Below, piece after piece: positions 126 to 50,140 of a stretch of DNA of 64,000 bases; the stretch's first letter is position 1; every line of letters begins with the position of its first letter. The position numbers and the translations under genes were made by a program. The notes under the pieces are model-generated. The model was not told the origin of the DNA and searched no databases. It saw only the letters and a list, made by a program, of their open reading frames with translations. Origin of the DNA: Deltaproteobacteria bacterium (GTDB lineage: Bacteria > Myxococcota_A > UBA9160 > UBA6930); contig JAJDAR010000082.1 in NCBI GenBank assembly GCA_029261775.1, positions 20,215-84,214 of the forward strand. Direction: 5' to 3'.

Positions 126-920
126 ATGGCAACCAGGCGGCAGGTTCCGCAGGAACGCTACGACCGCAAATACCTTTTGAGTGACAACACCGAAGGCTTC
201 CAGGAGTTCCAGGAAGGCCGGCTGAGCTTCATCAAGCAGCAGCAGATCGATGGACTCGAGCTCTCCCCGGGCATCCGCCTCCTCGAGGTCGGCTTCGGGC
301 GCGGAGAGTTCGCCTATCAATGCGCCCTACGCGGTGCCGCCCTCACGGCGATCGACTACTCCGAAGCGGCGCTCGAGATCGGCAGGGAGACCCTTGCCGA
401 CTTCCCCGATGCCGACTTGCGAGTGGCGGACTGCCGCGACCTCCCCTTTCCCGACGACTCCTTCGACCGCGTCTACTCGGGGGACGTCCTGGAGCACGTG
501 GACTTCGAGGACGGCGTCCAGATGCTGCGCGAGATGTATCGGGTGCTCGCACCGGACGGCTTCATCTTCCTCCACACGGCTCCGAACACGGTGTTCACGC
601 GCCTTGTCCTGCCCCTGGCAAAACCCTTGCTGCGCGCGATCGACTCGAAAGCGGTGGACACCCTCGAGGACCACATGAAGATCAACGAGTCGGTACACGT
701 CCACGAGTACAACCTGCTCAGCCTGCGGCGAGTCGCCCGGCGGGCGGGGCTGCGGAATGCACGGATCTGGATCGGGAGCGACGTGCTCCGATCCTCCCAG
801 CATCGCCATACCCAGGCGCTCTCGGCAAGCAGGCTCGTCCGCCTGGCCGGGTCCCTGGGCAGGCTGGCGCCCGTCCGGTTCTTCCTGGGTAACGATCTCT
901 ACCTTCGCTGCCGCAAGTAG
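126..920 (+). CDS. class I SAM-dependent methyltransferase
   Basis: 264-aa ORF. Gly-rich SAM motif I LLEVGFGRGEFA, then AIDYSE, DSFDRVYSGDVLEHV and VLAPDGFIFLHT, typical of Methyltransf_11/25-type enzymes. Overlapping frames are Arg/Pro-rich noise. Confidence 0.8.
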   Translation: MATRRQVPQERYDRKYLLSDNTEGFQEFQEGRLSFIKQQQIDGLELSPGIRLLEVGFGRGEFAYQCALRGAALTAIDYSEAALEIGRETLADFPDADLRVADCRDLPFPDDSFDRVYSGDVLEHVDFEDGVQMLREMYRVLAPDGFIFLHTAPNTVFTRLVLPLAKPLLRAIDSKAVDTLEDHMKINESVHVHEYNLLSLRRVARRAGLRNARIWIGSDVLRSSQHRHTQALSASRLVRLAGSLGRLAPVRFFLGNDLYLRCRK

Positions 921-3196
921 AGCAGACCCGCGACGACCAGCGCGACGAGAGTGGTGGCACCGCCCAGGCGCACGCTGCTCGGTCGGTAGACGAACTCGAC
1001 CCGATGCTTCCCCGGTTCCAGGACGACTGCGCGGAACTGCGCATTCGCCGTGAGGACCTCGTGATGGGTACCGTTCACCCGGGCGATCCAGCCGGGGTAG
1101 ACGGTGTCCGTCAGCACCAGGACCCCCCGACGTGACAGCTCCGCCTCTACGATCACCCGCTTGGGTTCGTATCGGACGATCCGAACGGGCTCGATCGCGA
1201 CCCCCGACAGCGCGGGGAGCGCAACCGTGGCAGACAGGCCCTCGAGTACCACGCTCTGGCGGGGATCGAAGTCCGCCGAAGTCAGGGCCGACAACGCGTC
1301 ATCCTGGCTGGCCGCCGCCTCGCCGTGAAACGCCAGATAGGCTCGCGGGAGTGCGCCCCGGTTCTCGTACACGACGTACTGGCCGCCCTTGCGTGGGCGC
1401 GCCAGCGACCAGATGGGCGATCGCTCGGCGAGATCGGAGCGAAGACGTCGATTGAGGTGGTGCAGAACGAGAAACCGGACGCTCATCAGGTCGAGCAGGT
1501 CGAACTTCGAGGAAGTGATGTCTGGATCGAGCCATCCGCTGAAGGGCCTCCTGCTGCGCGCGCTCTCATCGCGGTCGAGCAGCCGGAAGAACCGAGCTCG
1601 GCGTGCGAGGCTGAGGGGCTCGTAGTCCGTCGCCGAGTAGATGCGCTCGAGGGTTCCGTGCTTCGCCATCATGGCGAAATCGAGGCGGCTTCCTCCGAGG
1701 AGCAGGCTTCGATCCAGGCCCTGGCGCGATCGAAGGTAGGCGAAGACGGACTGCTCCTGGTCCTGAAGCCCGGGCTCGTGGAACGGATGCCGATTCGTGT
1801 TGCGCGTCGCGAGGAAAGGGTCGGCAACGGCCAGCAGAGCCAGGACTCCGACGATCCCACGATGCAGGCCCGGACTCCGGATGAGGCTGCCCGCCAACGC
1901 AAGCAGCGCCGAGGACCACAACAGGGCGTGAGTCGGCCCCGAAGGTCGCTGGCTCAGCGAGACGAGTGCAGCGACCGACAGGACCACCACCGGGACGAGC
2001 CATCGTCGATGCCTGTTTCGATCCAAGGACGAGAGCACGTGCGTTCCGACGCCGGCGAGAGCCGCCCCGGCAAAGGCGTAGAGGAAGACGATGCGCTGCG
2101 GTTCGCGGAACCATTGGGCGCTCGGCACGGAGAGAAACGCCCTTCCCCACTCGGTGTGCACCGTGAGCGCGACGCCGGCGCCCAGGGCAAGGATCGACCA
2201 GAGGGCCGCCAGCCTCACCCCCATCCCCCGGGCGAGCAGGGAGAGCGGGATCAGGATCAGGGCCGGAATGCCCAGGTAGGTCCATCGCGGAGGCCCCACG
2301 ACGGCATTCGTGGCAGACGCGATGAGCTGGCCGGGTGCCGTACCGCCGAAGAGCATCATCTCCGAGGTCGAGAGGGAGCCGGTTCGCCGAGGGCTCAAGG
2401 CCTGCAGCTCGAAGCTCGGAAGGAGCTGGACGGCCGCGAGGGCCAGGCCCAGCCCGGCTCCGAGGCCCAGCAGACCCACCATGCGAAGCCTTCCCGGGGA
2501 CCCGACGACCCTTCCAGCGGCGATCCAATGAAGGCCGCAATAGAGGACCAGGGCGTACATCGAGTAGGTCCACAGCTGGAGCCATCCGGCGAGGATCGGC
2601 ATGGCGATCGACGCGGCCAGGGCGACGACCCACCGCGATCCTCCGCCACGCACGACCCGGTCCGCGGCAAGCAGACTTGCCGGCAACCAGATGCTTGCGG
2701 CCAGCGCCGGGGGGAACCAGTTGGCTCGCGACACGACGAAGCCCGACAGGACGAAGGTCGTCGCAGCCACGACACAGGCGATCCGACCGAGCCCCCAGAC
2801 ACGCGCGAGCATGTACATGAACACCGCACCCATCGACAGATGAAGCACGGCCACCAGTTCGACAGCGATGCGCGCCTCGAAGAGGAGATACGGGAAGTTG
2901 AACGGGTAGAGGCTCCCCGGGAGAAGAGTTGCCAACGCCGGATGGCCAGCTCCCTGGTAGGGATTCCACAGGGGCAGCTCTCCGGAGAGCCAGCTGTCGC
3001 GGATGCCGGTAGCGACAGGGACGATGTACGTGAACAGGTCGACGTTGCCCAGGTTGCGCACCAGCGGCGACTCGCTGGCCGGATCCAGGATCCGGAGCTT
3101 CCAGAACGCCAAGGTGACGAGCGCGAGGCCCGCCAGAGCCAGGCAGTCCCGCAACCGACTCGCCCCGGGAGACCCGGCCCTTCCAGCTCCCGACAT
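899..3196 (-). CDS. YfhO-family polytopic membrane protein (putative GT-C glycosyltransferase), paralog 1
   Basis: 765 aa with many hydrophobic segments. N-terminal GELPLWNPYQGAGHP and C-terminal YPGWIARVNGTHHEV...GKHRVEFVYRP followed by a final TM helix, which is the YfhO hallmark. Confidence 0.8.
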   Translation of the reverse strand: MSGAGRAGSPGASRLRDCLALAGLALVTLAFWKLRILDPASESPLVRNLGNVDLFTYIVPVATGIRDSWLSGELPLWNPYQGAGHPALATLLPGSLYPFNFPYLLFEARIAVELVAVLHLSMGAVFMYMLARVWGLGRIACVVAATTFVLSGFVVSRANWFPPALAASIWLPASLLAADRVVRGGGSRWVVALAASIAMPILAGWLQLWTYSMYALVLYCGLHWIAAGRVVGSPGRLRMVGLLGLGAGLGLALAAVQLLPSFELQALSPRRTGSLSTSEMMLFGGTAPGQLIASATNAVVGPPRWTYLGIPALILIPLSLLARGMGVRLAALWSILALGAGVALTVHTEWGRAFLSVPSAQWFREPQRIVFLYAFAGAALAGVGTHVLSSLDRNRHRRWLVPVVVLSVAALVSLSQRPSGPTHALLWSSALLALAGSLIRSPGLHRGIVGVLALLAVADPFLATRNTNRHPFHEPGLQDQEQSVFAYLRSRQGLDRSLLLGGSRLDFAMMAKHGTLERIYSATDYEPLSLARRARFFRLLDRDESARSRRPFSGWLDPDITSSKFDLLDLMSVRFLVLHHLNRRLRSDLAERSPIWSLARPRKGGQYVVYENRGALPRAYLAFHGEAAASQDDALSALTSADFDPRQSVVLEGLSATVALPALSGVAIEPVRIVRYEPKRVIVEAELSRRGVLVLTDTVYPGWIARVNGTHHEVLTANAQFRAVVLEPGKHRVEFVYRPSSVRLGGATTLVALVVAGLLYLRQRR

Positions 3197-3197
3197 C

Positions 3198-5324
3198 TCA
3201 GGCCCTCGCGCTCTGTTCGGACCTGCGTGCCCACAGCAGAGCGATCAGGGCGATCGCCGTCGAGAGCACGAACAGAATCGCGCCAACGCGGAACGAGTTG
3301 GGCCGGTAGACGAAGGCGACGCGGTGCCGCCCGGCCTCGAGCCGGACGCCACGGAAGATCGCGTTCGTTCGCACGATGGCAGCCTCCTCGTGGCCGACGC
3401 GGGCAGACCACCCTGGATAGTAGAGGTCGGTCAAGACGAGGAGACACTCAGCGTGGCAGGAAGCGTCCACGATGACGCGGTGAGGCTTCACCAGGCGGAT
3501 CCGGGCCGCACCGACCGAGCCGCGCAGCTCGCCGTCCAGGGAAGGACCTTCCGCGACGACCGCCTCCGCCCGCGGATCGAAGTCCGGGGCCACGATGTGC
3601 TCGCGGGCGACCCGAGCATCGGCCAGGACTCGAGTCCGGCCCACGACGTAAGCCCGGGGGACGGCCGTTTCACGGAGAAAGAGCGAGGAGTTGCCGACGC
3701 GACGAGCCGTTGCGTTCTCCGTCGTCTGGAGCCGCGCCAAGCCCTCGATGACACCGCTTCGAGCCGTTTGTGCCGCCCAGTAGCGGGCGCTCATGAGGTC
3801 GAGCAGCCTCGGTAGCTCCGGATCCGAGGGGTGCCTCGGGGTCTCGAGAACCGAGAGCCCACCATGCCAGAGGTGCTGCTTTCCGAAGTAGTCGGCATAG
3901 CTCCCCGGAATCATCGGCTGGTAGTCGGGCACGACCGGGACCCGATTCATCATCCCCAGCTTGTAGAGCAGGTCCAGGGAGCGGATGTGTCCCCAATCCT
4001 CGATGAACGTCCTCGACTCCTGACCTTGTTGCTCGAGGAAGCGAACGAGCTCGGGGGGACCCGTGCGTGGGTGATCCCACGAAATCGGAACCGCCCAGGG
4101 AAGAGCCGCCATCACCCAGGCATCGACGGTGATCAGGCCCACCGCGAGACCACTCGCCAGGCGGCTGGCGACGCGGGTGCGCTCCGAAGCCCAGCAAAGG
4201 AGCTGATCCAAGCCCAGTCCGAGCAGGATCGACCAGATCAATCCGTAGAAGGGCGCCATCCGCGCCGGGCTGCGAAACAGGTCACCCAGCGGGAGTGCGT
4301 GGTGCACTCGAAAGACGGGCGTCGAGGGTCCCATCATGAAGAGCCCTGTGAGGAGCGCCGCTGAGGCGAACGTCAGCCCGAGCCACCTCGGCCTGCGCCA
4401 CAGCGCCAGAGGGAGAGCCGCGAGCGCGAGCCAGGTCACCCGGGGAGCGAGCTGGCCGTGGGGAGCACTCGAAATCCAGCCCTCCCATGGGATGAAATGC
4501 GCGAGCGCAATCGATCTCCATGGCAAGAACCCCCACGACGCCTCTGCCAGGCTCAGCCCGTCGAGGCCCCTCGCGCCCAGCTGGCTCAGCTCGAGCGTGG
4601 GGAGCAGCTGAGGCGCGATCCACCCGAGGAACCAGACGGCGGCAACCAACGAGAGGCCCACGAAGCGCGGACGCTGGCCGACGAGGAACAGACCCAGCGC
4701 AGCTGCGAAGAACGCCGCCAGCAGACTTCCGTAGAGGAAACCCTGCGCGTCCCCTCCGAGAAAACCCATCGCTGCGCAGAAGGCGGCGATCGCCGCCTCC
4801 TGCAGCCGCGGGCGCTTCGCCAGGCCAACGAGTGCCCAGCACAGGGCCGGCGCCCAGACGAGTGTCGAGAGATAGAAGACGGTGTAGACGCGGATCAGGA
4901 CCGGCTCGGAGAGCGCGAACGCGATGGCCGCAGCCAACGCGGCCCCACGCCGCAGCTCGAGCCTTCGCAGCAGCAGGAACACGAAGAGGCCGGCCAGGAA
5001 GATGTGAAGAACCGCGTGCGAGGCAAGAGCCGCCTCGGCGGGGATGGCCGCAAGGAGCAGCAGGTTCGGCGGATAGAGGATGCCGGTCGCCTGCGCTGCC
5101 AGGACGGGGAAGCCAGCGAGCTGGTAGGGGTCCCATAGCGGGAGCCGGCCCTCCAGCAGCTCGTTCCGCAGGAAGACCGCGGTCGGGTACGAGTAACGCA
5201 CCACGTCGGAGCTCGAGAGCACCTCGAACTGGGGCGCGAGGACGTGAATGCGGTGCGCCCACAGGCTTCCCACGATCACCGCAAGAAGAACAGGAGCTCC
5301 AGCCCGACGCAGCACAGGTCGCAT
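3198..5324 (-). CDS. YfhO-family polytopic membrane protein, paralog 2
   Basis: 708 aa. GRLPLWDPYQLAGFP near the N-terminus and YYPGWSARVGHEEAAIV...GRHRVAFVYRP near the C-terminus. Lies 1 nt upstream of paralog 1 on the same strand. Confidence 0.8.
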   Translation of the reverse strand: MRPVLRRAGAPVLLAVIVGSLWAHRIHVLAPQFEVLSSSDVVRYSYPTAVFLRNELLEGRLPLWDPYQLAGFPVLAAQATGILYPPNLLLLAAIPAEAALASHAVLHIFLAGLFVFLLLRRLELRRGAALAAAIAFALSEPVLIRVYTVFYLSTLVWAPALCWALVGLAKRPRLQEAAIAAFCAAMGFLGGDAQGFLYGSLLAAFFAAALGLFLVGQRPRFVGLSLVAAVWFLGWIAPQLLPTLELSQLGARGLDGLSLAEASWGFLPWRSIALAHFIPWEGWISSAPHGQLAPRVTWLALAALPLALWRRPRWLGLTFASAALLTGLFMMGPSTPVFRVHHALPLGDLFRSPARMAPFYGLIWSILLGLGLDQLLCWASERTRVASRLASGLAVGLITVDAWVMAALPWAVPISWDHPRTGPPELVRFLEQQGQESRTFIEDWGHIRSLDLLYKLGMMNRVPVVPDYQPMIPGSYADYFGKQHLWHGGLSVLETPRHPSDPELPRLLDLMSARYWAAQTARSGVIEGLARLQTTENATARRVGNSSLFLRETAVPRAYVVGRTRVLADARVAREHIVAPDFDPRAEAVVAEGPSLDGELRGSVGAARIRLVKPHRVIVDASCHAECLLVLTDLYYPGWSARVGHEEAAIVRTNAIFRGVRLEAGRHRVAFVYRPNSFRVGAILFVLSTAIALIALLWARRSEQSARA

Positions 5325-5622: not shown

Positions 5623-7887
5623 TTGGGACCCATGGCACGCGCAGAATCTCGAACACCCGTTGCGCGCGGCCGCGCCTCCTCCTGGATGCCGATCGCAGCG
5701 CCGGTCGTGGCGGTCTCAGCCGGCATGGCCATCTTCTGGGGTTGGATCCTCCCCGTCGCCACCCGCGACCTGCCGAAGACCTTCGGTCCCCTGGCCCGAT
5801 GGGACCTCGAGACCTACTTCCTGCCGAAGTTCGTCTACGGCTCGGCGGAGTTCCTCGGAGGCGTGCTTCCGATCTGGAACCCCTTCGAGTTCGCCGGCTA
5901 TCCCCTCGCGGCCGCCGCCCAGCCGGCGGCGCTGTACCTCCCGAAGATCGCGCTGTTCGGCTGGCTCGAGCCCACGCTGGCGCTGCAGCTCTTCCTGGTC
6001 CTCCACTACGTCCTGGCTGCCGCCACTTTCGCGTTGCTGGGGCGCAGCCTCGCGCTTCCGACGCTCGGCATCACCGTGGGAGCGGTGTTCTACTGCTTCA
6101 GCATGACCATGCTGGGCAGCGTGGGCCACCCGGTGAAGATCTCGAACCTCGCCTGGACACCTCTCGTCTTCCTGATGGTCGACCAGTGGGGTAGCCATCG
6201 CAGGGCGACGGCCCTCGCGTTCCTGGTCCTCGTGCTCGCGATCCAGCTGACGGCCGGGTACCCGGCGTTCGTGATCGACACGGCCCCCCTTCTCGCGGTC
6301 TTCGCGCTGGGCCGTTGGGTCGAGGGTCGCTGGACCGTGCCGCCTTGGAAGAGCATTCCGGTGATCGCGGCCGCGTTCGCTGCCTCGGCGCTCGTCGCGG
6401 GGATCCAGGTCTTTCCGCTCGCGGAACTCGTCGGCATCAGCGGTCGCCTGGAGAACGCGTCCGAGATCGCTGCGATGGAGGGCCCACGTTCGAGCCTGGA
6501 GCTCCTCCTCCTCTTCCACACGGGGTTCGTCGCCCTCTACGGCTTCGTCCTGGCAGGAATCCGCCGCCACTCCGTGGCCGTGGTCGGCGTGCTCTTCGCC
6601 TGCCTGTTCCTGGTTCTCGGCGGTTGGAAGCTGCTTCGCCTGCTGCCGATCTACTCGTCGATCCGGATCCCGGCTTCCTACCCCTACCTCATGCAGCTTC
6701 CCCTTGCGTTGCTGGCGGCGGAGGGCGTACGGCGCGGCATGTCCGGCGAGGGCCGCGCGCGCCAGATGATCCGCTTGGGGGGGCTTCTCTGGGCTCTCGC
6801 GTGTCTGCTCGTACCGCTGGCCTTCGACCGGAGCTGGGGCGTGGAGCTGGGGCGCGCCATGCAGATCGCGTCGCCGTCGGCGGGCACCCTCCTGCACATG
6901 GGCCTCGGAGCAGGAGGCGGGCTGATGCTGGCAGCAGCATGGCGATCGCGTGCGACCGGTGCGGCCTGGGTCGCCGCGGCCGTCTGCCTGCTCGCGGTCG
7001 GGCAGCTGTCGAGCTACCCGAGCCTGCGGCCGATCTGGCCACTCCCCCCCCTGCCCGGACCCTCGCGGTCCTTGCAGCTCGTGCCCCCGGAGGTGCTTGC
7101 AGAGGGCCGGGTGTTCTCGCTCTACGATGCGCGCGGCGGGTTCCATCTCCTCGACCGCATCGAGAACACCTCGGGACGCGAAGGCAGCCTTCCGCCCCTT
7201 CGGTACCGCGACGTCGAGCGACGGCTCGGGCTCGTCGTCGGCACGCTACACGCCGATTGGGAAGCGGTGGCGTCGTCACCGGGCTACCTCGACACGCTGG
7301 ATGTCGCCTTCCTCGTCGTTCCGCGGCCGTGGGAGAAGACGTTCCTGGATGCTGGCTTCCAACCGACCCGCGACGGGTCCCAGCCAGGCCCCTGGACCGC
7401 ACTTCGGAACCCCGGGCGGATCGGTCGCGCGTGGGTGGTGCACGGCGTTCATGCCGTCGACGAGCCCGCGCAAGCGCTCGACGCCCTCCTGGCGCCGGAC
7501 TTCGACGCCCGGTCGCAGGTGATCCTCGAGAAGCCCACCCGGCATACCCATCCCTTCCGGTCGTCGAGACCCGCCCGGGCGGTCCCGGTCGTGTACGGCT
7601 CTCCGACCGAGGTCAGGATCGAAGTCGCTCTCGAGGAGCCCGGGATCCTCGTGCTGGCAGACTCGTGCTTTCCCGGGTGGCTGGCCCGGATCGACGGCGT
7701 CGACGAGCCGGTCCACTGCGGCAACTACCTCGTGCGCGCGGTGGAGCTCGATGCGGGCCCGCATGTCGTCGAGTTCCTGTATCGGCCCTGGTCCGTACGC
7801 TGGGGCCTCGCGAGCACGGGTTTCTCCGGCATTCTCCTCGTCGGCGTTCTCGTCCACCCCTGGCTGCGGAGGCGACGCGAAGCATGA
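5623..7887 (+). CDS. YfhO-family polytopic membrane protein, paralog 3
   Basis: 754 aa. GVLPIWNPFEFAGYP and CFPGWLARIDGVDEPV...GPHVVEFLYRP motifs. The ORF starts with TTG at 5623; the ATG at 5632 is a likelier start. Divergent from paralog 2. Confidence 0.8.
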   Translation: MGPMARAESRTPVARGRASSWMPIAAPVVAVSAGMAIFWGWILPVATRDLPKTFGPLARWDLETYFLPKFVYGSAEFLGGVLPIWNPFEFAGYPLAAAAQPAALYLPKIALFGWLEPTLALQLFLVLHYVLAAATFALLGRSLALPTLGITVGAVFYCFSMTMLGSVGHPVKISNLAWTPLVFLMVDQWGSHRRATALAFLVLVLAIQLTAGYPAFVIDTAPLLAVFALGRWVEGRWTVPPWKSIPVIAAAFAASALVAGIQVFPLAELVGISGRLENASEIAAMEGPRSSLELLLLFHTGFVALYGFVLAGIRRHSVAVVGVLFACLFLVLGGWKLLRLLPIYSSIRIPASYPYLMQLPLALLAAEGVRRGMSGEGRARQMIRLGGLLWALACLLVPLAFDRSWGVELGRAMQIASPSAGTLLHMGLGAGGGLMLAAAWRSRATGAAWVAAAVCLLAVGQLSSYPSLRPIWPLPPLPGPSRSLQLVPPEVLAEGRVFSLYDARGGFHLLDRIENTSGREGSLPPLRYRDVERRLGLVVGTLHADWEAVASSPGYLDTLDVAFLVVPRPWEKTFLDAGFQPTRDGSQPGPWTALRNPGRIGRAWVVHGVHAVDEPAQALDALLAPDFDARSQVILEKPTRHTHPFRSSRPARAVPVVYGSPTEVRIEVALEEPGILVLADSCFPGWLARIDGVDEPVHCGNYLVRAVELDAGPHVVEFLYRPWSVRWGLASTGFSGILLVGVLVHPWLRRRREA

Positions 7888-8576: not shown

Positions 8577-8586
8577 GAGAACCCGA

Positions 8587-8967
8587 ATGGAGTTCCAGCT
8601 CTTCCAGACCGTCGCGGCCCTGGGTTCGATCGGCCTCGTGGGGATCGTCCTCGAGCTGATCCGGCGTCGCAGCATCCAGGACGAGCTGTGGCTGCCCTGG
8701 CTCGCCCTCTCGGCCGCGCCCCTCTTCCTCAGCCTCTCGACGGGCACGTGGGGTGGCTTCGCCCGATCGCTCGGGGTGATCTACGAGCCGTCCCTGCTGC
8801 TCGCGTTGGGATTGCTGATGGCCTTCGCGATGCTCCTGTACCTGTCGACGGTGGTCTCTCGCCTGATCCGCCACAACCTCCTGTTGGCGCAGGAGGTCGC
8901 GGTACTTCGGGCGAGGGGGCTTGCGCCGCTGGCGACGACAGACCGCTCAGCTCCGGCGGATGGCTAG
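8587..8967 (+). CDS. small membrane protein, DUF2304-like GT2 partner
   Basis: 126 aa with 3-4 hydrophobic helices. The LIRRRSIQDELWLPWL motif resembles the DUF2304 proteins that commonly follow Dpm1-like GT2 genes. Confidence 0.55.
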   Translation: MEFQLFQTVAALGSIGLVGIVLELIRRRSIQDELWLPWLALSAAPLFLSLSTGTWGGFARSLGVIYEPSLLLALGLLMAFAMLLYLSTVVSRLIRHNLLLAQEVAVLRARGLAPLATTDRSAPADG

Positions 8968-44518: not shown

Positions 44519-45127
44519 CTAGAAGGACTGGTTCTCCGGCCTCGAAGCGGCTTTGACGGCGGGAATCAGCGACGCCTGGGGATGCGCGGAGAAGGCGATC
44601 AGCACGTCTCGCAACTGCACGCCCCGCTGCTCGATCTCGTCGATCCGCCAGCCGGCGGCGCCCTCCTGCTTCAGGCGAAAGACCTGCACGAAGCCGAAGC
44701 TCCCTTCCACGCGGACCTTCACCTGCACCTCGACCCGGCCGTCGTCGAGCGCGACGGGGGCGCGGAACTCCGGTTCGAGGAACATCACCGCCTTGCGCAG
44801 CCGTCCCTCGACCTGCACCTGGAGCCACGCGAACTCCCATGCATCGCGCCCTCGGGTCGCATCGACTGGCGCCAGGGCCTCGATCGGCGCCTCGCGCTCG
44901 ACGGGATCCATGAAGAGATAGTCGCCCCAGAGCCAACCCTCGACGGCGGCCATCGAGATGCCGTGACGGTCGTGGAACTCGGGCGTCAGGAGGGGGAGAT
45001 TGCGCGAGGGGTCGCGCTTCAGATTGCGGAAGTAGGCCTCGACCGTCTCCGTCGGAGTCGCGGGCAGGCGCGCGCAGCCCGCGGAGATGACGAGGATCAA
45101 GACGACCAGTACGGACGCGCGCCTCAT
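44519..45127 (-). CDS. exported hypothetical protein (probable lipoprotein)
   Basis: 202 aa from MRRASVLVVLILVISAGC (signal peptide ending in Cys). Real C-terminal part of ORF 44519..46612. The ATG overlaps the upstream stop as ATGA. Confidence 0.6.
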   Translation of the reverse strand: MRRASVLVVLILVISAGCARLPATPTETVEAYFRNLKRDPSRNLPLLTPEFHDRHGISMAAVEGWLWGDYLFMDPVEREAPIEALAPVDATRGRDAWEFAWLQVQVEGRLRKAVMFLEPEFRAPVALDDGRVEVQVKVRVEGSFGFVQVFRLKQEGAAGWRIDEIEQRGVQLRDVLIAFSAHPQASLIPAVKAASRPENQSF

Positions 45128-46476
45128 ATCCACCACCCGAACCACAGGAAGGCCGTGTCGCCGGCCGCCAGGAGCAGCAGGAGGCCACGCGCCACGCTCC
45201 GGAAGCGACCGCGCAGGGCCTGCAGGGCGGAGGCGAAGGCCAGACCGATCGGCAGCAGGGCCGGAAGCAGGTAGCTCGCCTTCACGGCCGAGTAGGTCGG
45301 AAGGACCCAGCTGTAGCGAAGCAGCGCGGCGAACAGGAGACCGGCAAAGAGCAGGGCCCAGAGCTCGCCTGGCGACCGACGCTGCACGATGCGAAGCAGG
45401 CCGAAGCACGCGAAAACCGTCGCGAAGAGGCCGGCCACGGAGACGATGGGAAGCACCTTGAGGGTCGTGGTCGTGATCCAGATGTAGTGGCCGTGCACGT
45501 CTGCCCAGGCTGAGGCGTGGAGCAGGCCAGGCACCGAGGTGGCCATGCCGGCCCCGTCGAAGCGCGGCCAGGCGATCGCGCTCGCGGGGAAGTTGAGATA
45601 GTGCCAGAGCTCGCGTTGCCCAGGCGGCTGCGAGCTCATGACCAGCGCGAGATCCGGGGAGTGGGCGGCACCCGACAGGAAGCTCATCGGAGAGCCTCCC
45701 CCGTCGAGGGCGACGCGGACGTAGAAGGGCGCTGCGAGAAGCAGGGCCGGCAGCGCAATCGCGGTCCCGCAGAGGAGGGCTCGGGGGAGCGAGGCGCGCG
45801 CATGCACCAGGTAGGCCAACCCAGCGACACCGCCCACCACCCAGCCCGTCGACTTGGAGAGCGCGGCGAGTGCGACCCAGAGACCGGTGACCAGCGCATG
45901 ACGCACCAGGTCCCCATCGTCGGTCGGCAGGTCGAGCAACCGGACCAGGACCAGCGTCGCAAAGAGCGCGCAGAACCCCTCGTTGCCGAGCATCACGAGC
46001 GCGATGCCCACGAACGGAATCGACAACAACAGCACCGCCGTGACGGCCGCATCCTCCGGAGCGAAGCGGCGTGCCAGGTGCCGCCACACGATGGCGATTG
46101 CCGCGAGTCCCGGTGCCAACGAGAGGTATCGCATGGCGAGATGCACCGGCACCGACTCCGGAAGCATCGCCCAGGCCAAGCCGGCCAGGGCGTGGTAGAG
46201 CGGGGGGTGGAAGCCGGACCACGAGCTCGGAGGCGGCAGGAGTCCCTGCAGAAAGAAGTGCGCGCTCTGGACGTGGCCTGCCGCGTCGTAGTCCTGGAGC
46301 GCGGGAAAGGCGGCTGCGGAGTGCAGCCGGCCGACGACGGCAGCGACGGCGACCGCGGCAGCGGCGGCCAGCCAAAGACGTTCGGCTCGAAGAGAAGACC
46401 CGGTCACGGGGAGTCGGGGGGTCGAAATGCCGCGGATCAGCTCTCGATCTTGAGCTTCTCGATCGCGCGGTTGCAA
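45124..46476 (-). CDS. polytopic membrane glycosyltransferase, ArnT/PMT-like GT-C
   Basis: 450 aa and hydrophobic throughout. After TM1: LQDYDAAGHVQSAHFFLQG...FHPPLYHA, parallel to 42322..43728. TTG start at 46476 is uncertain because it overlaps the upstream gene by 40 nt. Confidence 0.6.
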   Translation of the reverse strand: MQPRDREAQDRELIRGISTPRLPVTGSSLRAERLWLAAAAAVAVAAVVGRLHSAAAFPALQDYDAAGHVQSAHFFLQGLLPPPSSWSGFHPPLYHALAGLAWAMLPESVPVHLAMRYLSLAPGLAAIAIVWRHLARRFAPEDAAVTAVLLLSIPFVGIALVMLGNEGFCALFATLVLVRLLDLPTDDGDLVRHALVTGLWVALAALSKSTGWVVGGVAGLAYLVHARASLPRALLCGTAIALPALLLAAPFYVRVALDGGGSPMSFLSGAAHSPDLALVMSSQPPGQRELWHYLNFPASAIAWPRFDGAGMATSVPGLLHASAWADVHGHYIWITTTTLKVLPIVSVAGLFATVFACFGLLRIVQRRSPGELWALLFAGLLFAALLRYSWVLPTYSAVKASYLLPALLPIGLAFASALQALRGRFRSVARGLLLLLAAGDTAFLWFGWWI

Positions 46477-47375
46477 TCCGCGGTCGAGCCCGTCTGGCAG
46501 CCAGGGAGGGTCTTCTTGATCTCCTCGACGAGGCGCATCCGCTCGCGGAAGTAGGCGCCGTTGAGCTGGTCATCCTTGAAGTCGACGAAGTCCACCGCCT
46601 CGTCCCCCCCATCGATGTTGAGGTAGCTCAACGCCTCTGCCGCTCGAGCGGCCATGTCGAAGTTCTGGTGCGATTCGACGTTGTAGGCGAGGTTGAAGAG
46701 GGTCGAGATGGCGCCGGAGTGCAGGTCCCCGAGGTTCTCGAACAGCTCGATCGCCTGCTCGTAATGAAGCTCATCGCCGAAGAAGGGAACGAGCTGGCCG
46801 GCCGAGAGCGCCTCGAGATCGAGCAGGGCCTCGATGTTGTCGGGATCGGCCTCGGGATCCCCGAGAGCCGCCTCGGCGACTTCACCGAGCACGTCGTTGG
46901 CCTCGAGCGCAGCCAGTGCGCGCACGGCGGCCACCCGGATCCGCGAGGAAGGATCGAAGATCGCGAGCTGGCGAAGCAGATCGAGGTCGGCCTGGTTCTC
47001 GCGCTCGTCGAGGTCCTCGAGCGCCTCGAGGCGAACCCGCTCGTCCGGGTCGAGGAGGCGCGAGCGCAGCTCGGCATCGTCGATCGGCGCCTCGAGATCA
47101 GCGCGACCTGCGGCTCCCTGGGCCCTCGGAAGGCGAGACCGGAGCGAGCGATCACCGGGGCGCAGGCGGACGAATTCCGACTCGGTCCGAGCGACCGGGC
47201 CCGGCCGTGCGCCCAGGCCCAGGGGCGGAGGAGCATCGACGGACGGAGCAATCCCCGCGGGGACTCCGGACTCCGGGGAAGGCAGCCAACCCGGTCGTTC
47301 AGCCCAGATCAGTCCGATTCCGACGAGGAGCGCGGTCACAGCGACAGCGGCGACGGGAGCGAGCTTCTTCCACAT
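46437..47375 (-). CDS. membrane-anchored HEAT-repeat protein
   Basis: 312 aa from MWKKLAPVAAVAVTALLVGIGLIW (anchor). HEAT-like repeats (DPDERVRLEALEDL, DPSSRIRVAAVRALAAL). The upstream part of ORF 46437..47675 lacks coding character. Confidence 0.6.
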   Translation of the reverse strand: MWKKLAPVAAVAVTALLVGIGLIWAERPGWLPSPESGVPAGIAPSVDAPPPLGLGARPGPVARTESEFVRLRPGDRSLRSRLPRAQGAAGRADLEAPIDDAELRSRLLDPDERVRLEALEDLDERENQADLDLLRQLAIFDPSSRIRVAAVRALAALEANDVLGEVAEAALGDPEADPDNIEALLDLEALSAGQLVPFFGDELHYEQAIELFENLGDLHSGAISTLFNLAYNVESHQNFDMAARAAEALSYLNIDGGDEAVDFVDFKDDQLNGAYFRERMRLVEEIKKTLPGCQTGSTADCNRAIEKLKIES

Positions 47376-47556
47376 GTCACGACTCCAAGGCTGGCGAAGA
47401 ACGGGGTATCGTATCACGTTCTCCGGCCGGCGAGCGGTGTCGAAATCGCGCGTCACGCACGAGCCGGCGCCTGCCACTCTTCTCCAGACCTTTCTCTCGA
47501 CCCGTGCGTCGCGTCCCATCGGGGCCCGATACTCGATCCAGGAGCACGTTGAAACC

Positions 47557-48294
47557 ATGTCCCGAGTCGCTTCTACCTCCCTCACTGCCGTTCTCGCCCT
47601 GGTGCTGGCGCTGTCCTGGGGCTGCTCGAGCGCGGATGACTCGGATTCCGCAGCATCCCCGGAGGGAGCCGCCATCCAGCCCGACCATTGGCTGAACGAC
47701 CCCTTGCTTCCGGAGCCTCCGGACGTCGAGGTCTACGCGGCGGTCGAGAACTCGTTCACGGAAGAGCCCGAGGGCATGAACGATCCGCGCGTCGAGGAGA
47801 TCCAAGAGATGGCCAAGGTCGAGAGCCTCGTGGCCACGCCAGCGGGGCCCGAGACCGTCGCATCCGTGCTCGAGCTCGGCCTGGCCGAGCCGGTCCTCCC
47901 AGCGGTCCAGGAGGAGGCCATCGATGCACTCGAGAATCTGGGGTGGAAGGGCGGCCAGCTCGACGGAGCGGTCGAGGCGATCGGGAAGATCCTGGAGGTC
48001 GGCGAGCCGCGGGTGAGAGCGCGAGCCATCGAAGCCCTCGACTTCCTGAAGAGTGACCGCTCGACGGAGCTGCTGATCGGCGCGCTCTCCGATCCCCATC
48101 CGCAGGTCCGCTCGGATGCCTGCTCGGGCCTGCTGCTTCGGGTTCGACCGGAGCACCACGAGCCCGTCAAGGCAGCCTACCTCAAGGAGGAGGACCGAAC
48201 GGTGAAGGTCGACCTCTGGGAGCTGCTCGAGAACATCGCCGTCGAGCGACAGAAGATGCGCGCCGCCCAGGGGGCCGACGCAAAGGACGCCTAG
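47557..48294 (+). CDS. exported HEAT-repeat protein (signal peptide with Cys)
   Basis: 245 aa from MSRVASTSLTAVLALVLALSWGC. Repeats such as EPRVRARAIEALDFL and DPHPQVRSDACSGL. Divergent from 46437..47375. Confidence 0.65.
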   Translation: MSRVASTSLTAVLALVLALSWGCSSADDSDSAASPEGAAIQPDHWLNDPLLPEPPDVEVYAAVENSFTEEPEGMNDPRVEEIQEMAKVESLVATPAGPETVASVLELGLAEPVLPAVQEEAIDALENLGWKGGQLDGAVEAIGKILEVGEPRVRARAIEALDFLKSDRSTELLIGALSDPHPQVRSDACSGLLLRVRPEHHEPVKAAYLKEEDRTVKVDLWELLENIAVERQKMRAAQGADAKDA

Positions 48295-48304: not shown

Positions 48305-50140
48305 TCAGGGCTGCGAGCGTGTCTCCCTCAGGAGCTCCACGGCCAGGCCGGCTCGCCCGGCCCGGCGCGCGAGGTCCGAGAGCACGAGCGGAATCTGGGG
48401 ATCGTCGGGCGGGAGACCCAGCTCGCGAGCAACGCCGGCGCGGGCTTGCGCGTCTCGCCCCGCGCGAAGATCCAGCAGCACGAGATCGAGTCCCGCCCAG
48501 ACGATCTCGGGATGGACCTCGCGGCTACGGGCCGCGACCTGCTCCGCACGCTCCCAGAGCCCCTGCCGGATCAGGACATCCAGGAGCAGCTTGCTGGCAT
48601 CGTAGTTCTCCGGATCTTCCACGAGGGCGCGCTCGAGCAGCGCGATGGCCTGCGCCGGGCGGCCGCGGCGATCCTCGAGGCCTCCGAGCCGATGGAGCGC
48701 GAGCGGGAGCATCTTGCGCTCGGGTCCCGCAGCTTGCTCCGCGAGATCGGCGGCTCGCTGCAAAGGCGGAAACGCCTCTTCGAAGCGGCCGACCGCGGTG
48801 AGGAACGCTCCCCAGTTCAGGAACGCACGGGAGTTCTGGGGCGTGTGGCGAGCGTTCGCGGCCCAGAGCTCGACGGGGCTCGCGTACTCGAGATTCCGCT
48901 CTCGGGTGGCCACGACCGAGGCAAACGCGAGCGACGCCACGACGAGAGCGAAGCAGGCCCTTGCCGACCGCCCGCGCCCCTCCAGCTGGAGCCCGGCCAC
49001 ACCCAGGATGCCAACCAGCAGGGCCGCCATCGGAAGGTACATCCGGTGCTCCGCCATGATCTCCGTCCTGATGGGCAGGATGCTCGACGAAGGGCCCAGG
49101 ACGAGGAAGCAGAGGGCCATGGGGAGGCTGGCGCGCGGCGCGCGGAAGAAACCGATCGCCGTCGCCACGACGGCCGCGGCCACCGCGACCAGGGCCGGGC
49201 CATAGGACGGCCAAGCACGGCCGAGGTCGGCCAACCGGTGGACCTCGACGATCGGCCAGCCGTAATCCACCAGCAGCGGTGACGGCCACACGACGAGGCG
49301 CGCATAGTGCACGAGCGCGTTGCCCTGCGTCAGGAGGTAGTTCAGCGGATTCAGGGACTGGGAGAACCAGCCGACCGAGTCGGGCCGAGGAGCCGTCGCC
49401 AGGAGCCCTGCGGTCAGCAGCCACGCAGAAGCGAGCCCCGCATAGAGAGGCTTGTGGTCGCGCAGGCCCCCCGATCTCGAGAAGAGTGCGCGGTGGATCA
49501 GCCAGAAGGCGATCGGGACCAGGGCTCCGACCTCCTTGCTGCCCACCGAGAGCCATGCGAATAGCGTCGCCAGCGCCACCCAGAGGCCTCGGCGACCGGG
49601 CTCGAGGGCACGACAGCTACAGAGCAGCGCCAGGACGAAGAAGAGGGACATCAGCACTTCGGCGCGCTGGGCGGCGTACGTCACCGCACTGGTCGTCAGC
49701 GGGTGCACCGTCCACAGGGCTGCCGCAGCCAGCGCGAGGGAGCGGGCCAGTCCCTCGAGACGCCTGACCGCCCCGAGCAGCCGCTCCGCCAGGAAGAACA
49801 GGGCCAGGCCCGTGGCCACGTGAAGCACCACGTTCACGGCCACGAAGCTTCTCGGACTGGGAAGCCTGGCTCCCTCCTCCCAATGGGCGAACACTGCGTT
49901 CACCGACCAGGAGAAGGCCATGACGGGGCGGCCGGCGGCAGTGCCGTCCTTCTGCAGGCTGAACAGCAGCTCGAAGGGCCACGCCCCGGGCGTCAGTCCT
50001 GACGACATCAGGATGTCGTCGAAGACGAACCGGGCGCCCAGAGCGGTCTCGTAGGCCGCTCCCGCGACGGCGAGCAGGAGACACGCGGGAAGCAGGGCAC
50101 CCGTGAGGCCGCCGGGCCACGGCCGGTGCGCGACGGACAT
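48305..50140 (-). CDS. TMTC-like GT-C membrane domain fused to C-terminal TPR repeats (putative protein O-mannosyltransferase-like)
   Basis: 611 aa. ARFVFDDILM acidic loop after TM1 (the FV(Y/F)DD motif of TMTC/DUF1736-type proteins), about 10 TM helices over 420 aa, then TPR-like repeats (AFLNWGAFLTAVGRFEEAFPPLQRA..., AIALLERALVEDPENYDA...). Confidence 0.7.
   Translation of the reverse strand: MSVAHRPWPGGLTGALLPACLLLAVAGAAYETALGARFVFDDILMSSGLTPGAWPFELLFSLQKDGTAAGRPVMAFSWSVNAVFAHWEEGARLPSPRSFVAVNVVLHVATGLALFFLAERLLGAVRRLEGLARSLALAAAALWTVHPLTTSAVTYAAQRAEVLMSLFFVLALLCSCRALEPGRRGLWVALATLFAWLSVGSKEVGALVPIAFWLIHRALFSRSGGLRDHKPLYAGLASAWLLTAGLLATAPRPDSVGWFSQSLNPLNYLLTQGNALVHYARLVVWPSPLLVDYGWPIVEVHRLADLGRAWPSYGPALVAVAAAVVATAIGFFRAPRASLPMALCFLVLGPSSSILPIRTEIMAEHRMYLPMAALLVGILGVAGLQLEGRGRSARACFALVVASLAFASVVATRERNLEYASPVELWAANARHTPQNSRAFLNWGAFLTAVGRFEEAFPPLQRAADLAEQAAGPERKMLPLALHRLGGLEDRRGRPAQAIALLERALVEDPENYDASKLLLDVLIRQGLWERAEQVAARSREVHPEIVWAGLDLVLLDLRAGRDAQARAGVARELGLPPDDPQIPLVLSDLARRAGRAGLAVELLRETRSQP

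Follow-up and report, generated by a model that had tools for sequence, protein, structure and literature searches.

A 64-kb stretch of DNA, referred to here as the window, on contig JAJDAR010000082.1 of Deltaproteobacteria bacterium encodes eleven large membrane proteins that belong to the GT-C superfamily. Judged from its gene families and their arrangement, the region is probably (about 70% likely) a conserved envelope-glycan supercluster that would act mainly at the periplasmic face of the inner membrane. The source is an uncultured diderm related to Myxococcota/Binatia. The eleven genes occupy 20.5 kb of 49.2 kb (42%), and conventional export genes are absent from the window. Related metagenomes contain the same set of GT-C proteins, donor synthases, and envelope enzymes, and this recurrence suggests an envelope glycan not described so far, assembled or decorated on the periplasmic side. 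A sequence-only reading had proposed an extracytoplasmic assembly or decoration line that uses polyprenyl-phosphate sugar donors; this proposal is supported, and the tests named for its refutation left it standing.

All eleven open reading frames are backed by GC3 frame analysis of the 68% GC window. By HMM, paralogy, homologue, and fold evidence, three of the proteins are YfhO-like, one is DUF6311/YfhO-like, five are PMT_2/ArnT-like, one is GT87, and one is TMTC-like with TPR. Six score above Pfam gathering cutoffs (two for YfhO, three for PMT_2, one of them also for PMT, and one for GT87), and three others are paralogues of these (those at 5623, 35936, and 42322 of those at 899, 22146, and 45124, respectively). 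For the remaining two, full-length homologues carry YfhO, PF10131, DUF6311, or PMT_2 domains (PF09586, PF10131, PF19830, or PF13231; protein at 20065) or PMT_2 (protein at 48305). A strict hydropathy scan gives 6–12 TM segments per protein, which is an undercount because two AlphaFold models show about 13 membrane helices. The acidic first-loop motif noticed earlier is present throughout, as an Asp or Glu directly after the first TM helix in 11/11, and it is invariant in both family alignments tested (D51 in the 20065 family, D41/D42 in the 48305 family). Soluble C-terminal domains, described before as frequent, occur in 8/11. No Wzy_C match was found at E ≤ 0.01 among the eleven, and the top PDB folds are GT-C only (for the models of 20065 and 22146: STT3, PglB, AglB, ArnT, Emb, AftA, DPY19, and Pmt4). 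By these results, none of the eleven resembles a transporter or a Wzy/O-antigen-ligase protein. The paralogues are about 30% identical to one another, and we take the eleven to be anciently diverged members of at least five subfamilies.

Orthologues of individual window genes (35–74% identity) occur together on contigs from other samples, so the locus-level check called for by the earlier reading recovered the same gene set. For example, the related 22-kb context L084 has five distinct GT-Cs that pair with five different paralogues of the window (35–54%), beside 10 further window orthologues. L082 keeps the run GT-C/GT9/rSAM/methyltransferase/SDR/PMT_2/AT3/PDZ/MBOAT/carrier protein. The related contigs carry a separate orthologue for every one of the GT-C paralogues, which indicates an old, conserved system. 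Gene order is shuffled between relatives with the same gene vocabulary, and the cluster could therefore consist of several modules that work independently, each on an acceptor of its own. The GT-C density had been called exceptional. This is true relative to most genomes: of 42 loci in other species that span 15 kb or more and are anchored on a 20065-family gene, only three have at least three detectable GT-Cs. The cluster type nevertheless recurs within the lineage.

The YfhO-like proteins are encoded at 899..3196 (minus strand, 765 aa; Pfam YfhO 6e-19, above cutoff; 12 TM segments, first-loop D53), 3198..5324 (minus, 708 aa; YfhO 5e-13; 30% identical to the former over 773 aa, 1e-43), and 5623..7887 (plus, 754 aa). 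The last has 9 TM segments and no Pfam match, is a paralogue of the first (4e-24 C-terminal, 1e-9 N-terminal) and of the second, and opens an operon GT-C/GT2/DUF2304 in which its stop overlaps the GT2 start. The DUF6311/YfhO-related protein (20065..22149, minus, 694 aa), assigned by homologue annotation, belongs to a family of 32,518 representatives, mostly without Pfam annotation. Its AF2 model (pLDDT 88) has GT-C proteins as all of its top 16 PDB matches, and its C-terminal beta-sandwich domain bears a weak resemblance to the carbohydrate-binding domain of Wzt. The neighboring PMT_2-type protein (22146..24182, minus, 678 aa; PMT_2 2e-7) also ends in a beta-sandwich, which is CBM-like; all of its top 29 PDB matches are GT-C (AF2 pLDDT 83), followed by weak carbohydrate-binding-module matches.

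The other PMT_2-type or related proteins lie at 12146..13816 (plus, 556 aa; PMT_2 7e-10 and PMT 6e-8; DE in the first-loop motif; 46% orthologue in L082), 35936..38059 (plus, 707 aa; paralogue of 22146, 2e-21; weak Agl23 match; orthologues of 46–54% in L003, L082, L084, and L085), 42322..43728 (minus, 468 aa; paralogue of 45124, 3e-22; orthologues of 43–47% in L084 and L085, annotated PMT_2), and 45124..46476 (minus, 450 aa; PMT_2 4e-8; 48% orthologue in L084). The GT87-family member is at 40178..41503 (plus, 441 aa; GT87 4e-8, above cutoff; 9 TM segments). The TMTC-like protein (48305..50140, minus, 611 aa) has a C-terminal TPR domain identified by TPR matches, an invariant FDD motif, and a 40% orthologue in L084; its homologues (80–97% coverage) carry PMT_2.

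Three soluble GT2 proteins, taken earlier as Dpm1/Ppm1-like, indeed have DPMS (5mlz) as their best PDB match (3e-15 to 1e-33), then ArnC, and are candidate polyprenyl-phosphate sugar synthases of the Dpm1/ArnC type. They are encoded at 7884..8576 (plus, 230 aa, no TM; Pfam GT2 4e-23, DPMS 3e-15), 32970..33773 (plus, 267 aa; GT2 2e-31, DPMS 1e-33), and 43692..44408 (minus, 238 aa; GT2 2e-33, DPMS 1e-32; orthologues at 71–74%). For the second, the ATG at 32970 is the likelier start, with an SD-like GGAGAGGAGAG upstream. By coordinates, each GT2 sits in a same-strand run with overlaps or short gaps that holds at least one GT-C (5623/7884/8554; 32970/33786/35936; 45124/lipoprotein/43692/42322/41523). 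Adjoining the GT2 at 7884 is a small DUF2304 membrane protein (8554..8967, plus; Pfam 6e-13) of the GacJ/Rv3632 family, in which such proteins are activator partners of GT2s.

Members of UPF0104 have been predicted or shown to be lipid flippases, and the UPF0104/LPG_synthase_TM protein at 38064..38999 (minus; Pfam 8e-13) is the sole candidate flippase for lipid-linked sugars in the locus. The earlier reading placed the protein correctly and gave it 677 aa; it has 311 aa, and the upper half of the longer ORF overlaps a separate plus-strand gene, 39312..40124, for a membrane-anchored PDZ-domain protein (270 aa; 45% orthologue in L082, annotated PDZ). In L084 and L085 the UPF0104 orthologue shows translational coupling to a GT-C gene and a methyltransferase gene, and the full operon in L084 is GT2/GT4/GT-C/UPF0104/methyltransferase, which supports the place of UPF0104 in the system.

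The genes that the earlier reading passed over widen this picture without contradicting it. Seven SAM methyltransferases are encoded at 126..920 (plus, CMAS/Methyltransf_11-like, at the left edge), 8947..9819 (minus) and 11274..12149 (plus; both Methyltransf_23), 14890..15648 (plus), 30990..31850 (minus), 31847..32743 (minus, Methyltransf_23; strongly conserved, with orthologues of 60–62% in L084 and L085), and 41523..42299 (minus). The last is a conserved partner of the GT-C/UPF0104 operon, with orthologues of 53–54% immediately after UPF0104 in L084 and L085. Other predicted cytoplasmic enzymes are an NAD-dependent SDR epimerase/dehydratase (13813..14880, plus; Pfam Epimerase 2e-38; 61% orthologue in L082), a GT4 (25212..26471, plus; Glycos_transf_1 4e-38) with a 53% orthologue inside the GT2/GT-C/UPF0104 operon of L084, and a GT9 of the heptosyltransferase family (18631..20016, minus; GT9 1e-28; NCBIfam heptosyltransferases I–III at 1e-23 to 1e-26, under cutoffs; 65% orthologue in L082). 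A radical SAM/SPASM protein (17579..18634, minus) has a 74% orthologue beside GT9 in L082. The claim of a single nucleotide-sugar enzyme is right inside the window; immediately upstream lie two further SDR-type genes. The cluster extends at least 8.5 kb upstream of the left edge, where a GMC-oxidoreductase-SDR fusion gene is found.

Envelope tailoring is represented by two AT3 acyltransferases, one an AT3-SGNH O-acyltransferase of the OafA/SucT type (15676..17610, plus; Acyl_transf_3 7e-28, SGNH 4e-19; best NCBIfam match SucT, 9e-39, under cutoff), the other at 24184..25245 (minus; Pfam 3e-24; weak MdoC-like match). A module follows, composed of a fatty-acyl-AMP-ligase-like adenylating enzyme (26422..28224, plus; AMP-binding 2e-61; NCBIfam FAAL 2e-116, under cutoff), an 84-aa carrier protein with a phosphopantetheine site (28221..28475, plus; PP-binding 2e-9), a DltB-like MBOAT (28498..29865, minus; MBOAT 7e-17; NCBIfam DltB 1e-49, under cutoff), and a membrane-anchored protein with an SGNH-like VLGNS motif (29715..30881, plus; GDSL_2 0.0045, below cutoff). 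The last is a possible DltD/AlgX counterpart, and the overlap of its ORF with the MBOAT gene leaves its start in doubt. Two lipoproteins with a lipobox carry a sulfatase-fold (alkaline-phosphatase superfamily) domain of the Thr type: 9910..11277 (plus; Sulfatase 7e-38; DTTRAD motif, no C/S-x-P-x-R) and 33786..35918 (plus; Sulfatase 1e-44; an additional N-terminal domain, DTLRAD motif, 41% orthologue in L084).

We infer the donors, the flipping step, the acceptor, and a single product for all modules from this inventory, as follows. The three cytoplasmic Dpm1-type GT2s would charge polyprenyl phosphate with monosaccharides from nucleotide sugars, one of them paired with the GacJ-type DUF2304 protein. 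The SDR and the SAM methyltransferases may alter sugars or lipid-linked sugars in the cytoplasm prior to export; SAM methyltransferases cannot act in the periplasm, and this counts against the proposed scheme. Lipid-linked sugars would then be flipped, possibly by UPF0104; that the locus has no GtrA, SMR, MATE, or Wzx-type flippase also counts against the scheme. Each of the eleven GT-Cs could be responsible for its own position or linkage, adding a sugar to a periplasmic acceptor whose cytoplasmic primer would probably come from GT4 and GT9. The same product might be tailored outside the cytoplasm by the AT3 and AT3-SGNH enzymes, the acyl-AMP ligase/carrier/DltB-like MBOAT module, and the Thr-type sulfatase-fold lipoproteins. 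A glycan or glycolipid (LPS core or lipoglycan) is the probable acceptor, more so than a protein. The C-terminal beta-sandwiches of 20065 and 22146 hint at a glycan, as they weakly resemble carbohydrate-binding modules (E 3e-3 to 2e-2), and similar C-terminal domains occur in Emb, AftD, and GT136. Against a glycan, the substrates of PMT- and TMTC-type relatives in other organisms are proteins.

A special case of this scheme has a specific acceptor and no glycan built by these enzymes: the GT-Cs, sulfatase-fold transferases, and acyltransferases would modify lipid A, core, or O-antigen made elsewhere, as ArnC/ArnT, EptA-C, RgtA-E, GtrABC, and OafA do as periplasmic LPS modifiers. Such LPS decoration is possible but rather doubtful. 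The GT9 gene is conserved next to the 20065-type GT-C, although it scores far under all heptosyltransferase cutoffs and is the sole lipid A/core gene in the window. PMT_2, to which five of the GT-Cs are assigned, is the Pfam family that includes ArnT as well; ArnT is one of the top fold matches of 22146, and each of the three GT2s has ArnC as its second-best match of solved structure, yet ArnA/B/D and ArnE/F are missing from the window. Likewise, the sulfatase-fold proteins match EptA/CptA/MCR weakly but have no polytopic N-terminal domain of the EptA kind. Decoration would suit the AT3-SGNH enzymes, whose counterparts in other bacteria acylate O-antigens. A further discrepancy is numerical: eleven GT-Cs per three donors far exceeds any known LPS decoration system; to our knowledge, these have one GT-C per GT2.

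Protein O-glycosylation, in which PMT_2, PMT, and TMTC-like enzymes would add mannose or another sugar to proteins that are secreted or located at the surface, is unlikely. It would account for the match of 12146 to both PMT_2 and PMT, the TMTC-like layout of 48305 (membrane domain plus TPR), and the name ‘protein O-mannosyl-transferase’ given by JGI to some 48305 homologues. The protein-acting STT3, PglB, and DPY19 head both fold lists, and Pmt4 and Pmt1-Pmt2 are among the matches of 22146, but these similarities mirror the shared fold (TM-scores ~0.4), not the acceptor, and the C-terminal domains of 20065 and 22146 are CBM-like, unlike the MIR domains of PMTs. A candidate substrate lies downstream, a giant protein of >3,147 aa with 40 Cys-rich repeats, which together with DsbA and other exported proteins is within 4–14 kb; no such giant protein was found in the related contexts examined. 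Moreover, YfhO, GT87, and DUF6311-type members use glycan or glycolipid acceptors where studied (partly general knowledge), and the acyltransferases, sulfatase-fold transferases, and GT9 suit a glycan better. An ordinary exopolysaccharide or O-antigen locus, with Wzx/Wzy, ABC, or synthase export and a priming transferase just outside and the GT-Cs as accessory side-chain enzymes, is quite improbable. In its favor, such loci typically contain GT4, SDR epimerase, methyltransferase, and acyltransferase genes. The sequence covered comprises all but about 15 kb of the 87.8-kb source contig, and an acceptor pathway or exporter may be located in that part or elsewhere in the genome. However, Wzx, Wzy, ABC, PCP/OPX, synthase, and priming phosphoglycosyltransferase genes are absent from all called genes of the window, as the earlier reading stated, and also from the 8.5-kb upstream flank and four independent related 22-kb contexts with the same gene vocabulary in differing order. 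We know of no conventional polysaccharide locus that approaches 42% GT-C coding.

The proposed periplasmic glycan supercluster shares its logic with multi-component transmembrane glycosylation, in which a GT2 in the cytoplasm produces a polyprenyl-phosphate-linked monosaccharide, a membrane flippase translocates it, and a GT-C transfers the sugar outside the cytoplasm: GtrA/B/C (Salmonella, Shigella), CsbB/GtcA/YfhO (Bacillus, Listeria), GacI/J/K/L (Streptococcus pyogenes), and PPPRS/MATE/GT136 (Citrobacter youngae). The locus resembles these in its GT2/GT-C runs, the Gac system in the DUF2304 partner, and the Csb system in its YfhO-like members. It differs in its ratio of eleven GT-Cs to three GT2s, where those systems have one of each, UPF0104 as the conserved partner in place of the other flippase types, GT2s without the TM anchor of GtrB/CsbB, no acceptor-polymer pathway, and embedded methyltransferases, sulfatase-fold lipoproteins, and a carrier-protein/MBOAT module.

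Mycobacterial LM/LAM and arabinogalactan assembly (Ppm1, PimE/GT87, MptA-C, EmbA-C, AftA-D, SucT) likewise uses many GT-Cs on few polyprenyl-phosphate donors, a branched extracytoplasmic glycan, and a GT4-made primer, features that are predicted for the locus. Further likenesses are soluble GT2s (Ppm1 domain D2), a GT87 member (PimE), CBM-like C-terminal domains (Emb, AftD), and the SucT match. In contrast, the lineage is a diderm of the Myxococcota/Binatia type, the locus has no Emb/Aft-family Pfam matches, no UbiA-type decaprenyl-phosphoribose synthase or recognizable DprE1/E2 was found in the window, though the GMC-oxidoreductase-SDR fusion is present upstream, and the mycobacterial systems offer no counterpart to the sulfatase-fold lipoproteins or the seven methyltransferases. 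ArnC/ArnT, Rhizobium RgtA-E, and EptA-type LPS modification is matched by ArnC-like GT2s, PMT_2-family GT-Cs, and alkaline-phosphatase-superfamily proteins at the periplasmic face; the locus differs in the Arn genes it lacks, in its lipoprotein rather than polytopic sulfatase-fold proteins, and in far more numerous and diverse GT-Cs. Eukaryotic and actinobacterial PMT and TMTC enzymes share the PMT/PMT_2 Pfam matches, the acidic first-loop motif (DE in 12146, FDD in 48305), and, for TMTC, the TPR layout of 48305; the locus has no MIR domain and no acceptor protein was found for it.

At the right side of the cluster, an ORF listed earlier at 44433–45188 was in the wrong frame and is replaced by a small lipoprotein gene (44519..45121, minus; 39% orthologue in L084). 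Two divergent exported HEAT-repeat proteins are encoded within 46437..48294 (about 46437–47372, minus, and 47560–48294, plus, a lipoprotein), with HEAT proteins at the flank of the cluster in L083 and L085 as well.

Extracytoplasmic glycosylation from polyprenyl-phosphate sugars is known in two forms: small decoration modules, each made of one GT2, one flippase and one GT-C, and the assembly line of the mycobacterial cell wall, a drug target. The locus described here looks like a large, conserved assembly system of the mycobacterial type in a different, uncultured lineage. The system is solid, conserved and unusual; each of its functional steps is an inference.

With a GC content of 67-71% throughout the window, ORFs taken alone include many false frames, and genes were therefore called from third-position GC and frame plots; these yield about 42 genes and leave no uncalled gap longer than 312 nt. 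The sequence-only reading had proposed eleven GT-C-like ORFs, named here by their starts (899, 3198, 5623, 12146, 20065, 22146, 35936, 40178, 42322, 45124 and 48305), and the same plots uphold every one of them; together they take up 42% of the roughly 49-kb stretch 899-50140. The start that it gave for the second GT2 gene, 32970, is also the likelier one. The 677-aa UPF0104 ORF did not survive: in the region 38064-40124, this long minus-strand frame is a high-GC artefact that overlaps a real plus-strand gene for a membrane-anchored PDZ protein (39312-40124), and the UPF0104 gene itself encodes 311 aa (38064-38999, minus strand). ORF 44433-45188 lies in the wrong frame, its true product being a lipoprotein of about 200 aa in another frame, and the overlapping ORFs 46437-47675 and 46834-48294 give way to two shorter, divergent exported HEAT-repeat proteins. 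The gene for an 84-aa carrier protein (28221-28475), missed in the first gene list, was added. A mobile-element origin was rejected: GC is uniform, and the window holds no tRNA and no integrase or transposase match.

As far as sequence and predicted structure show, the eleven proteins are GT-C enzymes, as had been proposed; Pfam, paralogy, homologue annotation and fold matches agree on this. Six exceed Pfam gathering scores: 899 and 3198 for YfhO, 12146 for both PMT_2 and PMT, 22146 and 45124 for PMT_2, and 40178 for GT87. Three are placed by paralogy (1e-21 to 1e-24): 5623 matches 899 and 3198 (4e-24, 1e-9), 35936 matches 22146 (2e-21), and 42322 matches 45124 (3e-22). The remaining two, 20065 and 48305, are placed via full-length homologues annotated YfhO, PF10131, DUF6311 or PMT_2. 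All of these families (YfhO, PMT_2, PMT, GT87, PF10131 and DUF6311) we take to be members of the GT-C clan. None of the eleven has a Wzy_C or transporter-family match in Pfam at E<=0.01. A strict hydropathy scan finds 6-12 hydrophobic segments in each protein, and an Asp or Glu follows TM1, in the first extracytoplasmic loop, in 11/11. This acid is invariant in the family alignments of 20065 (A1, D51) and 48305 (A2, D41/D42) and nearly invariant in a third alignment (A3, E32).

Two proteins were compared at the level of the fold. 20065 has no Pfam match of its own, and Asp51 is invariant across the 21 sequences of its family alignment. Its AlphaFold model (pLDDT 88, pTM 0.89) has GT-C proteins as its best 16 PDB matches (STT3, DPY19, AftA, PglB; probability 1.0, TM-score ~0.4); the family profile had found no meaningful match among PDB sequences, and fold comparison was used instead. 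The model of 22146 (pLDDT 83) likewise has only GT-C proteins among its best 29 PDB matches, again with probability 1.0 and TM-score ~0.4; these include AglB, ArnT, EmbA/B/C, STT3, AftA, PglB and Pmt4. In both AF2 models the membrane part has about 13 helices. The profile of the 20065 family retrieves 32,518 representatives at 50% identity (4,925 at E<=1e-30), which makes it a very large family; most of the members examined carry no Pfam annotation. 48305 belongs to a widespread bacterial family that combines a membrane domain with TPR, some members also having PMT_2; its FDD motif is invariant in the family alignment. The profile of this family against the PDB is swamped by TPR proteins and is uninformative for the membrane domain.

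On the donor side, the three GT2s (7884, 32970 and 43692) are paralogues of each other and have no TM helices. Each aligns across its whole catalytic domain with the Pyrococcus dolichyl-phosphate-mannose synthase (DPMS; 3e-15 to 1e-33), the next-best solved relatives being ArnC and then GtrB (sll0501). By these relatives, the three are candidate polyprenyl-phosphate sugar synthases. A DUF2304 protein (8554) directly follows 7884; two members of this family are known from published work: GacJ, a binding partner and stimulator of the GlcNAc-P-undecaprenol synthase GacI, and Rv3632, an accessory protein of PpgS. By coordinates, every GT2 shares a same-strand run with one or two GT-Cs: 5623 / 7884 / 8554; 32970 / 33786 / 35936, in which 33786 is a sulfatase-fold lipoprotein; and 45124 / lipoprotein / 43692 / 42322 / 41523, which ends in a methyltransferase. 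GT2 and GT-C are also paired in L084, one of four related 22-kb contexts from other samples (L082-L085). The eleven GT-Cs may use a lipid-phosphate-linked sugar donor, in keeping with their co-location with Dpm1-type GT2s.

How such donors might cross the membrane is suggested by the UPF0104 gene. In L084 and L085 it overlaps the end of a 42322-type GT-C gene and is followed by a 41523-type methyltransferase gene, and the operon order in L084 is GT2 (74%), GT4 (53%), GT-C, UPF0104, methyltransferase. No dedicated flippase of the GtrA, SMR, MATE or Wzx type is found by Pfam among the called genes of the window. UPF0104 is the conserved alternative to these types and our candidate flippase; according to the literature, the flippase domain of MprF, the C-terminal domain of AglD, and GpgF belong to the same family. 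In comparison with decoration modules of the Gtr, CsbB-GtcA-YfhO or GacIJKL type, the locus shares GT2s related to polyprenyl-phosphate sugar synthases and GT-Cs encoded with them, but it has UPF0104 in place of a GtrA/SMR/MATE/Wzx-type flippase.

The extracytoplasmic assembly or decoration line that had been proposed for the window is extended by several further enzymes. The locus encodes seven class-I SAM methyltransferases (none named by an NCBIfam match above cutoff), an SDR epimerase/dehydratase, a GT4, a GT9 and a radical-SAM/SPASM protein. Apart from these, its enzymes are of types that modify extracytoplasmic substrates or supply the groups for such modification: one AT3 and one AT3-SGNH acyltransferase, two sulfatase-fold lipoproteins and an acyl-ligase/carrier/MBOAT module. 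The sulfatase-fold lipoproteins (9910-11277 and 33786-35918) have a Thr-type DTxRAD motif and no C/S-x-P-x-R formylglycine motif, which makes a role as phospho-transferase or hydrolase likelier than one as true sulfatase. Lipoproteins of this Thr type recur in every related context (L083, L084, L085), where two or three copies per locus stand next to genes for PMT_2 GT-Cs and Methyltransf_23 enzymes.

The radical-SAM/SPASM protein was considered as an anaerobic maturase for formylglycine sulfatases and rejected: no maturase is among its top NCBIfam matches, and the sulfatase-fold proteins are of the Thr type. Its gene is tightly conserved (74% between loci) beside GT9 (65%) and the 20065-type GT-C, at 17579-20016 of the window and 12788-15117 of L082, and it adjoins a 20065-type gene in a further related locus (L048) as well. 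The neighbouring GT9 has an N-terminal extension of about 95 aa.

The module at 26422-30881 resembles a Dlt-type trans-membrane acylation system. It consists of a fatty-acyl-AMP-ligase-like enzyme, the 84-aa carrier protein, a DltB-like MBOAT and an SGNH-like anchored protein. The MBOAT matches DltB at 1e-49, but with 170 bits against a cutoff of 375; the adenylating enzyme matches fatty-acyl-AMP ligases in NCBIfam (2e-116) rather than DltA; and the possible counterpart of DltD shows only an SGNH-like motif. This composition suggests that a periplasmic substrate receives fatty acyl groups rather than D-alanine. MBOAT and carrier protein are adjacent in L082 too, and an MBOAT homologue occurs in 7/42 related loci. 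In the literature searched, no paper connects DltB to fatty-acyl-AMP ligases. The gene for the PDZ protein is one of the conserved genes, since its orthologue sits between AT3 and MBOAT in L082. Exported HEAT-repeat proteins also accompany the cluster (46437-48294 of the window, 1-2362 of L083 and 1-61 of L085); in L083 a PMT_2 protein of 975 aa carries a fused HEAT region, which hints at a role as periplasmic scaffold or in acceptor binding.

The GTDB species representatives that were scanned do not include the source MAG, whose contig is in NCBI and Logan. The nearest locus is in a Myxococcota MAG (46-71% identity), followed by Binatia and 'Deltaproteobacteria' MAGs. The gene vocabulary of the window recurs in the homologue contexts L082-L085. 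L084 holds 15 orthologues of window genes in 22 kb (35-74% identity), and its five GT-Cs each match a different window paralogue: 48305 (40%), 45124 (48%), 22146 (35%), 42322 (47%) and 35936 (54%). L082 keeps the run GT-C (20065), GT9 (65%), radical SAM (74%), methyltransferase, SDR (61%), PMT_2 (46%), AT3, PDZ, MBOAT (53%) and carrier protein. Among themselves, the window paralogues share only some 30% identity, and each copy has its own orthologue; therefore, the duplications predate these lineages and each copy was kept. Such old, fully retained duplications argue for distinct, non-redundant roles of the eleven GT-Cs.

GT-C arrays are not a general feature of the 20065 family. Among 42 loci of at least 15 kb each from other species, anchored on a 20065-type gene, 6/42 have at least two detectable GT-Cs and 3/42 at least three, and the multi-GT-C loci are all Binatia-, 'Deltaproteobacteria'- or Myxococcota-like. 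A 'Deltaproteobacteria' MAG (L012, 1-22034) has five full-length 20065-type paralogues in 22 kb, and a Binatia MAG (L009, 1-20511) has three full-length GT-C matches and four shorter YfhO-like fragments in 20 kb; both loci also have GT2, methyltransferase, sulfatase-fold and MBOAT genes.

On the simplest account, donors would be made by the GT2s and flipped, with UPF0104 as candidate flippase, and the eleven specialised GT-Cs would then use them on a periplasmic acceptor, which would also be acylated and phospho-modified. An ordinary exopolysaccharide locus is unlikely, as the hallmark genes of Wzx/Wzy-, ABC- or synthase-dependent loci are lacking in the window, in 8.5 kb upstream and in the four related 22-kb contexts. 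The claim that export genes are missing holds over this wider range: Pfam finds no Wzx, Wzy, PCP/OPX, ABC transporter, processive synthase or priming phosphoglycosyltransferase in the window and upstream flank (all but about 15 kb of the 87.8-kb source contig), and no export or priming gene in L082-L085. 50150, 51033 and 44519 were considered as hidden exporters and rejected, since each is a secreted protein or a lipoprotein and has two hydrophobic segments at most.

Two other destinations for the sugars are live alternatives. For LPS decoration, the nearest model is the ArnC/ArnT lipid A aminoarabinose pathway, of which the locus has only the ArnC-like GT2s and PMT_2 GT-Cs; by Pfam, the window contains no formyltransferase, aminotransferase, deformylase or EamA/SMR gene as counterparts of ArnA/B/D/E/F. 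For protein O-glycosylation, some relatives of 48305 are named 'protein O-mannosyl-transferase' by JGI. A glycan or glycolipid nevertheless seems the likelier acceptor, and building likelier than decoration at a single site, for two reasons: 11 GT-Cs to 3 donor synthases is a ratio like that of mycobacterial LM/LAM and arabinogalactan, and the C-terminal beta-sandwich domains of both modelled proteins, 20065 and 22146, show a weak likeness to carbohydrate-binding modules; similar C-terminal domains are reported in Emb, AftD and GT136. The mycobacterial arabinan/mannan line and the locus have Dpm1/Ppm1-like GT2s in common; the locus differs in having no Emb/Aft Pfam family, no UbiA-type synthase and one GT87 match only. 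The paralogues behind the ratio of 11 to 3 are anciently diverged and individually conserved. PIM/LM synthesis begins with a primer made by a cytoplasmic GT4; once flipped, this primer is lengthened by GT-Cs. The GT4 in the GT2 / GT-C / UPF0104 operon of L084 and the GT87 member in the window may, by analogy, be reminiscent of this logic.

In its fullest form, the periplasmic-assembly reading is tentative, with roughly one chance in five: an uncultured, Myxococcota/Binatia-like diderm clade would build a complex methylated and acylated envelope lipoglycan or glycan wholly in the periplasm from polyprenyl-phosphate monosaccharides, with about a dozen dedicated GT-Cs, a UPF0104 flippase and a fatty-acyl carrier-protein/MBOAT module, and without a Wzx/Wzy, ABC or synthase pathway. 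If so, an assembly strategy like that of arabinogalactan and LAM would have evolved outside Actinobacteria. The components and the principle of the system are already known. In the literature searched, its scale, its lineage and its conserved partnership with UPF0104, methyltransferases, sulfatase-fold lipoproteins and a carrier/MBOAT module are not described, and no paper links GT-Cs with Myxococcota or Binatota. Partners so far undescribed in systems of this kind are the UPF0104 flippase candidate, Methyltransf_23, Thr-type sulfatase-fold lipoproteins and the acyl-AMP ligase/carrier/MBOAT module. Confirmation would show GT-C-based glycan assembly to be a general bacterial strategy, give functions to several large unannotated families such as that of 20065, and predict that bacteria abundant in soil and sediment carry a new envelope glycoconjugate. 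For now the value is limited: the organism is uncultured and the acceptor putative.

Upstream of the window, the cluster goes on along the source contig (L001), where there are a further AT3-SGNH, a further sulfatase-fold protein, an SDR and a GMC oxidoreductase-SDR fusion of 855 aa. The fusion, of the GMC/FAD type, is followed by a second SDR epimerase (L001 10733-14343), and this oxidase and reductase may, by analogy, work as DprE1 and DprE2 do in epimerising a lipid-linked sugar. At the other end, 4-14 kb from the TMTC-like GT-C 48305, lies a disulfide-rich surface-protein set of a kind typical of Myxococcota-like genomes: a secreted Cys-rich protein (51033-52748), DsbA (52777-53649), a cohesin/TSP3-like protein (53733-54602) and a giant minus-strand ORF (54556-63999; over 3,147 aa), which contains 40 Cys-rich Dicty_CTDC repeats and runs off the window end.
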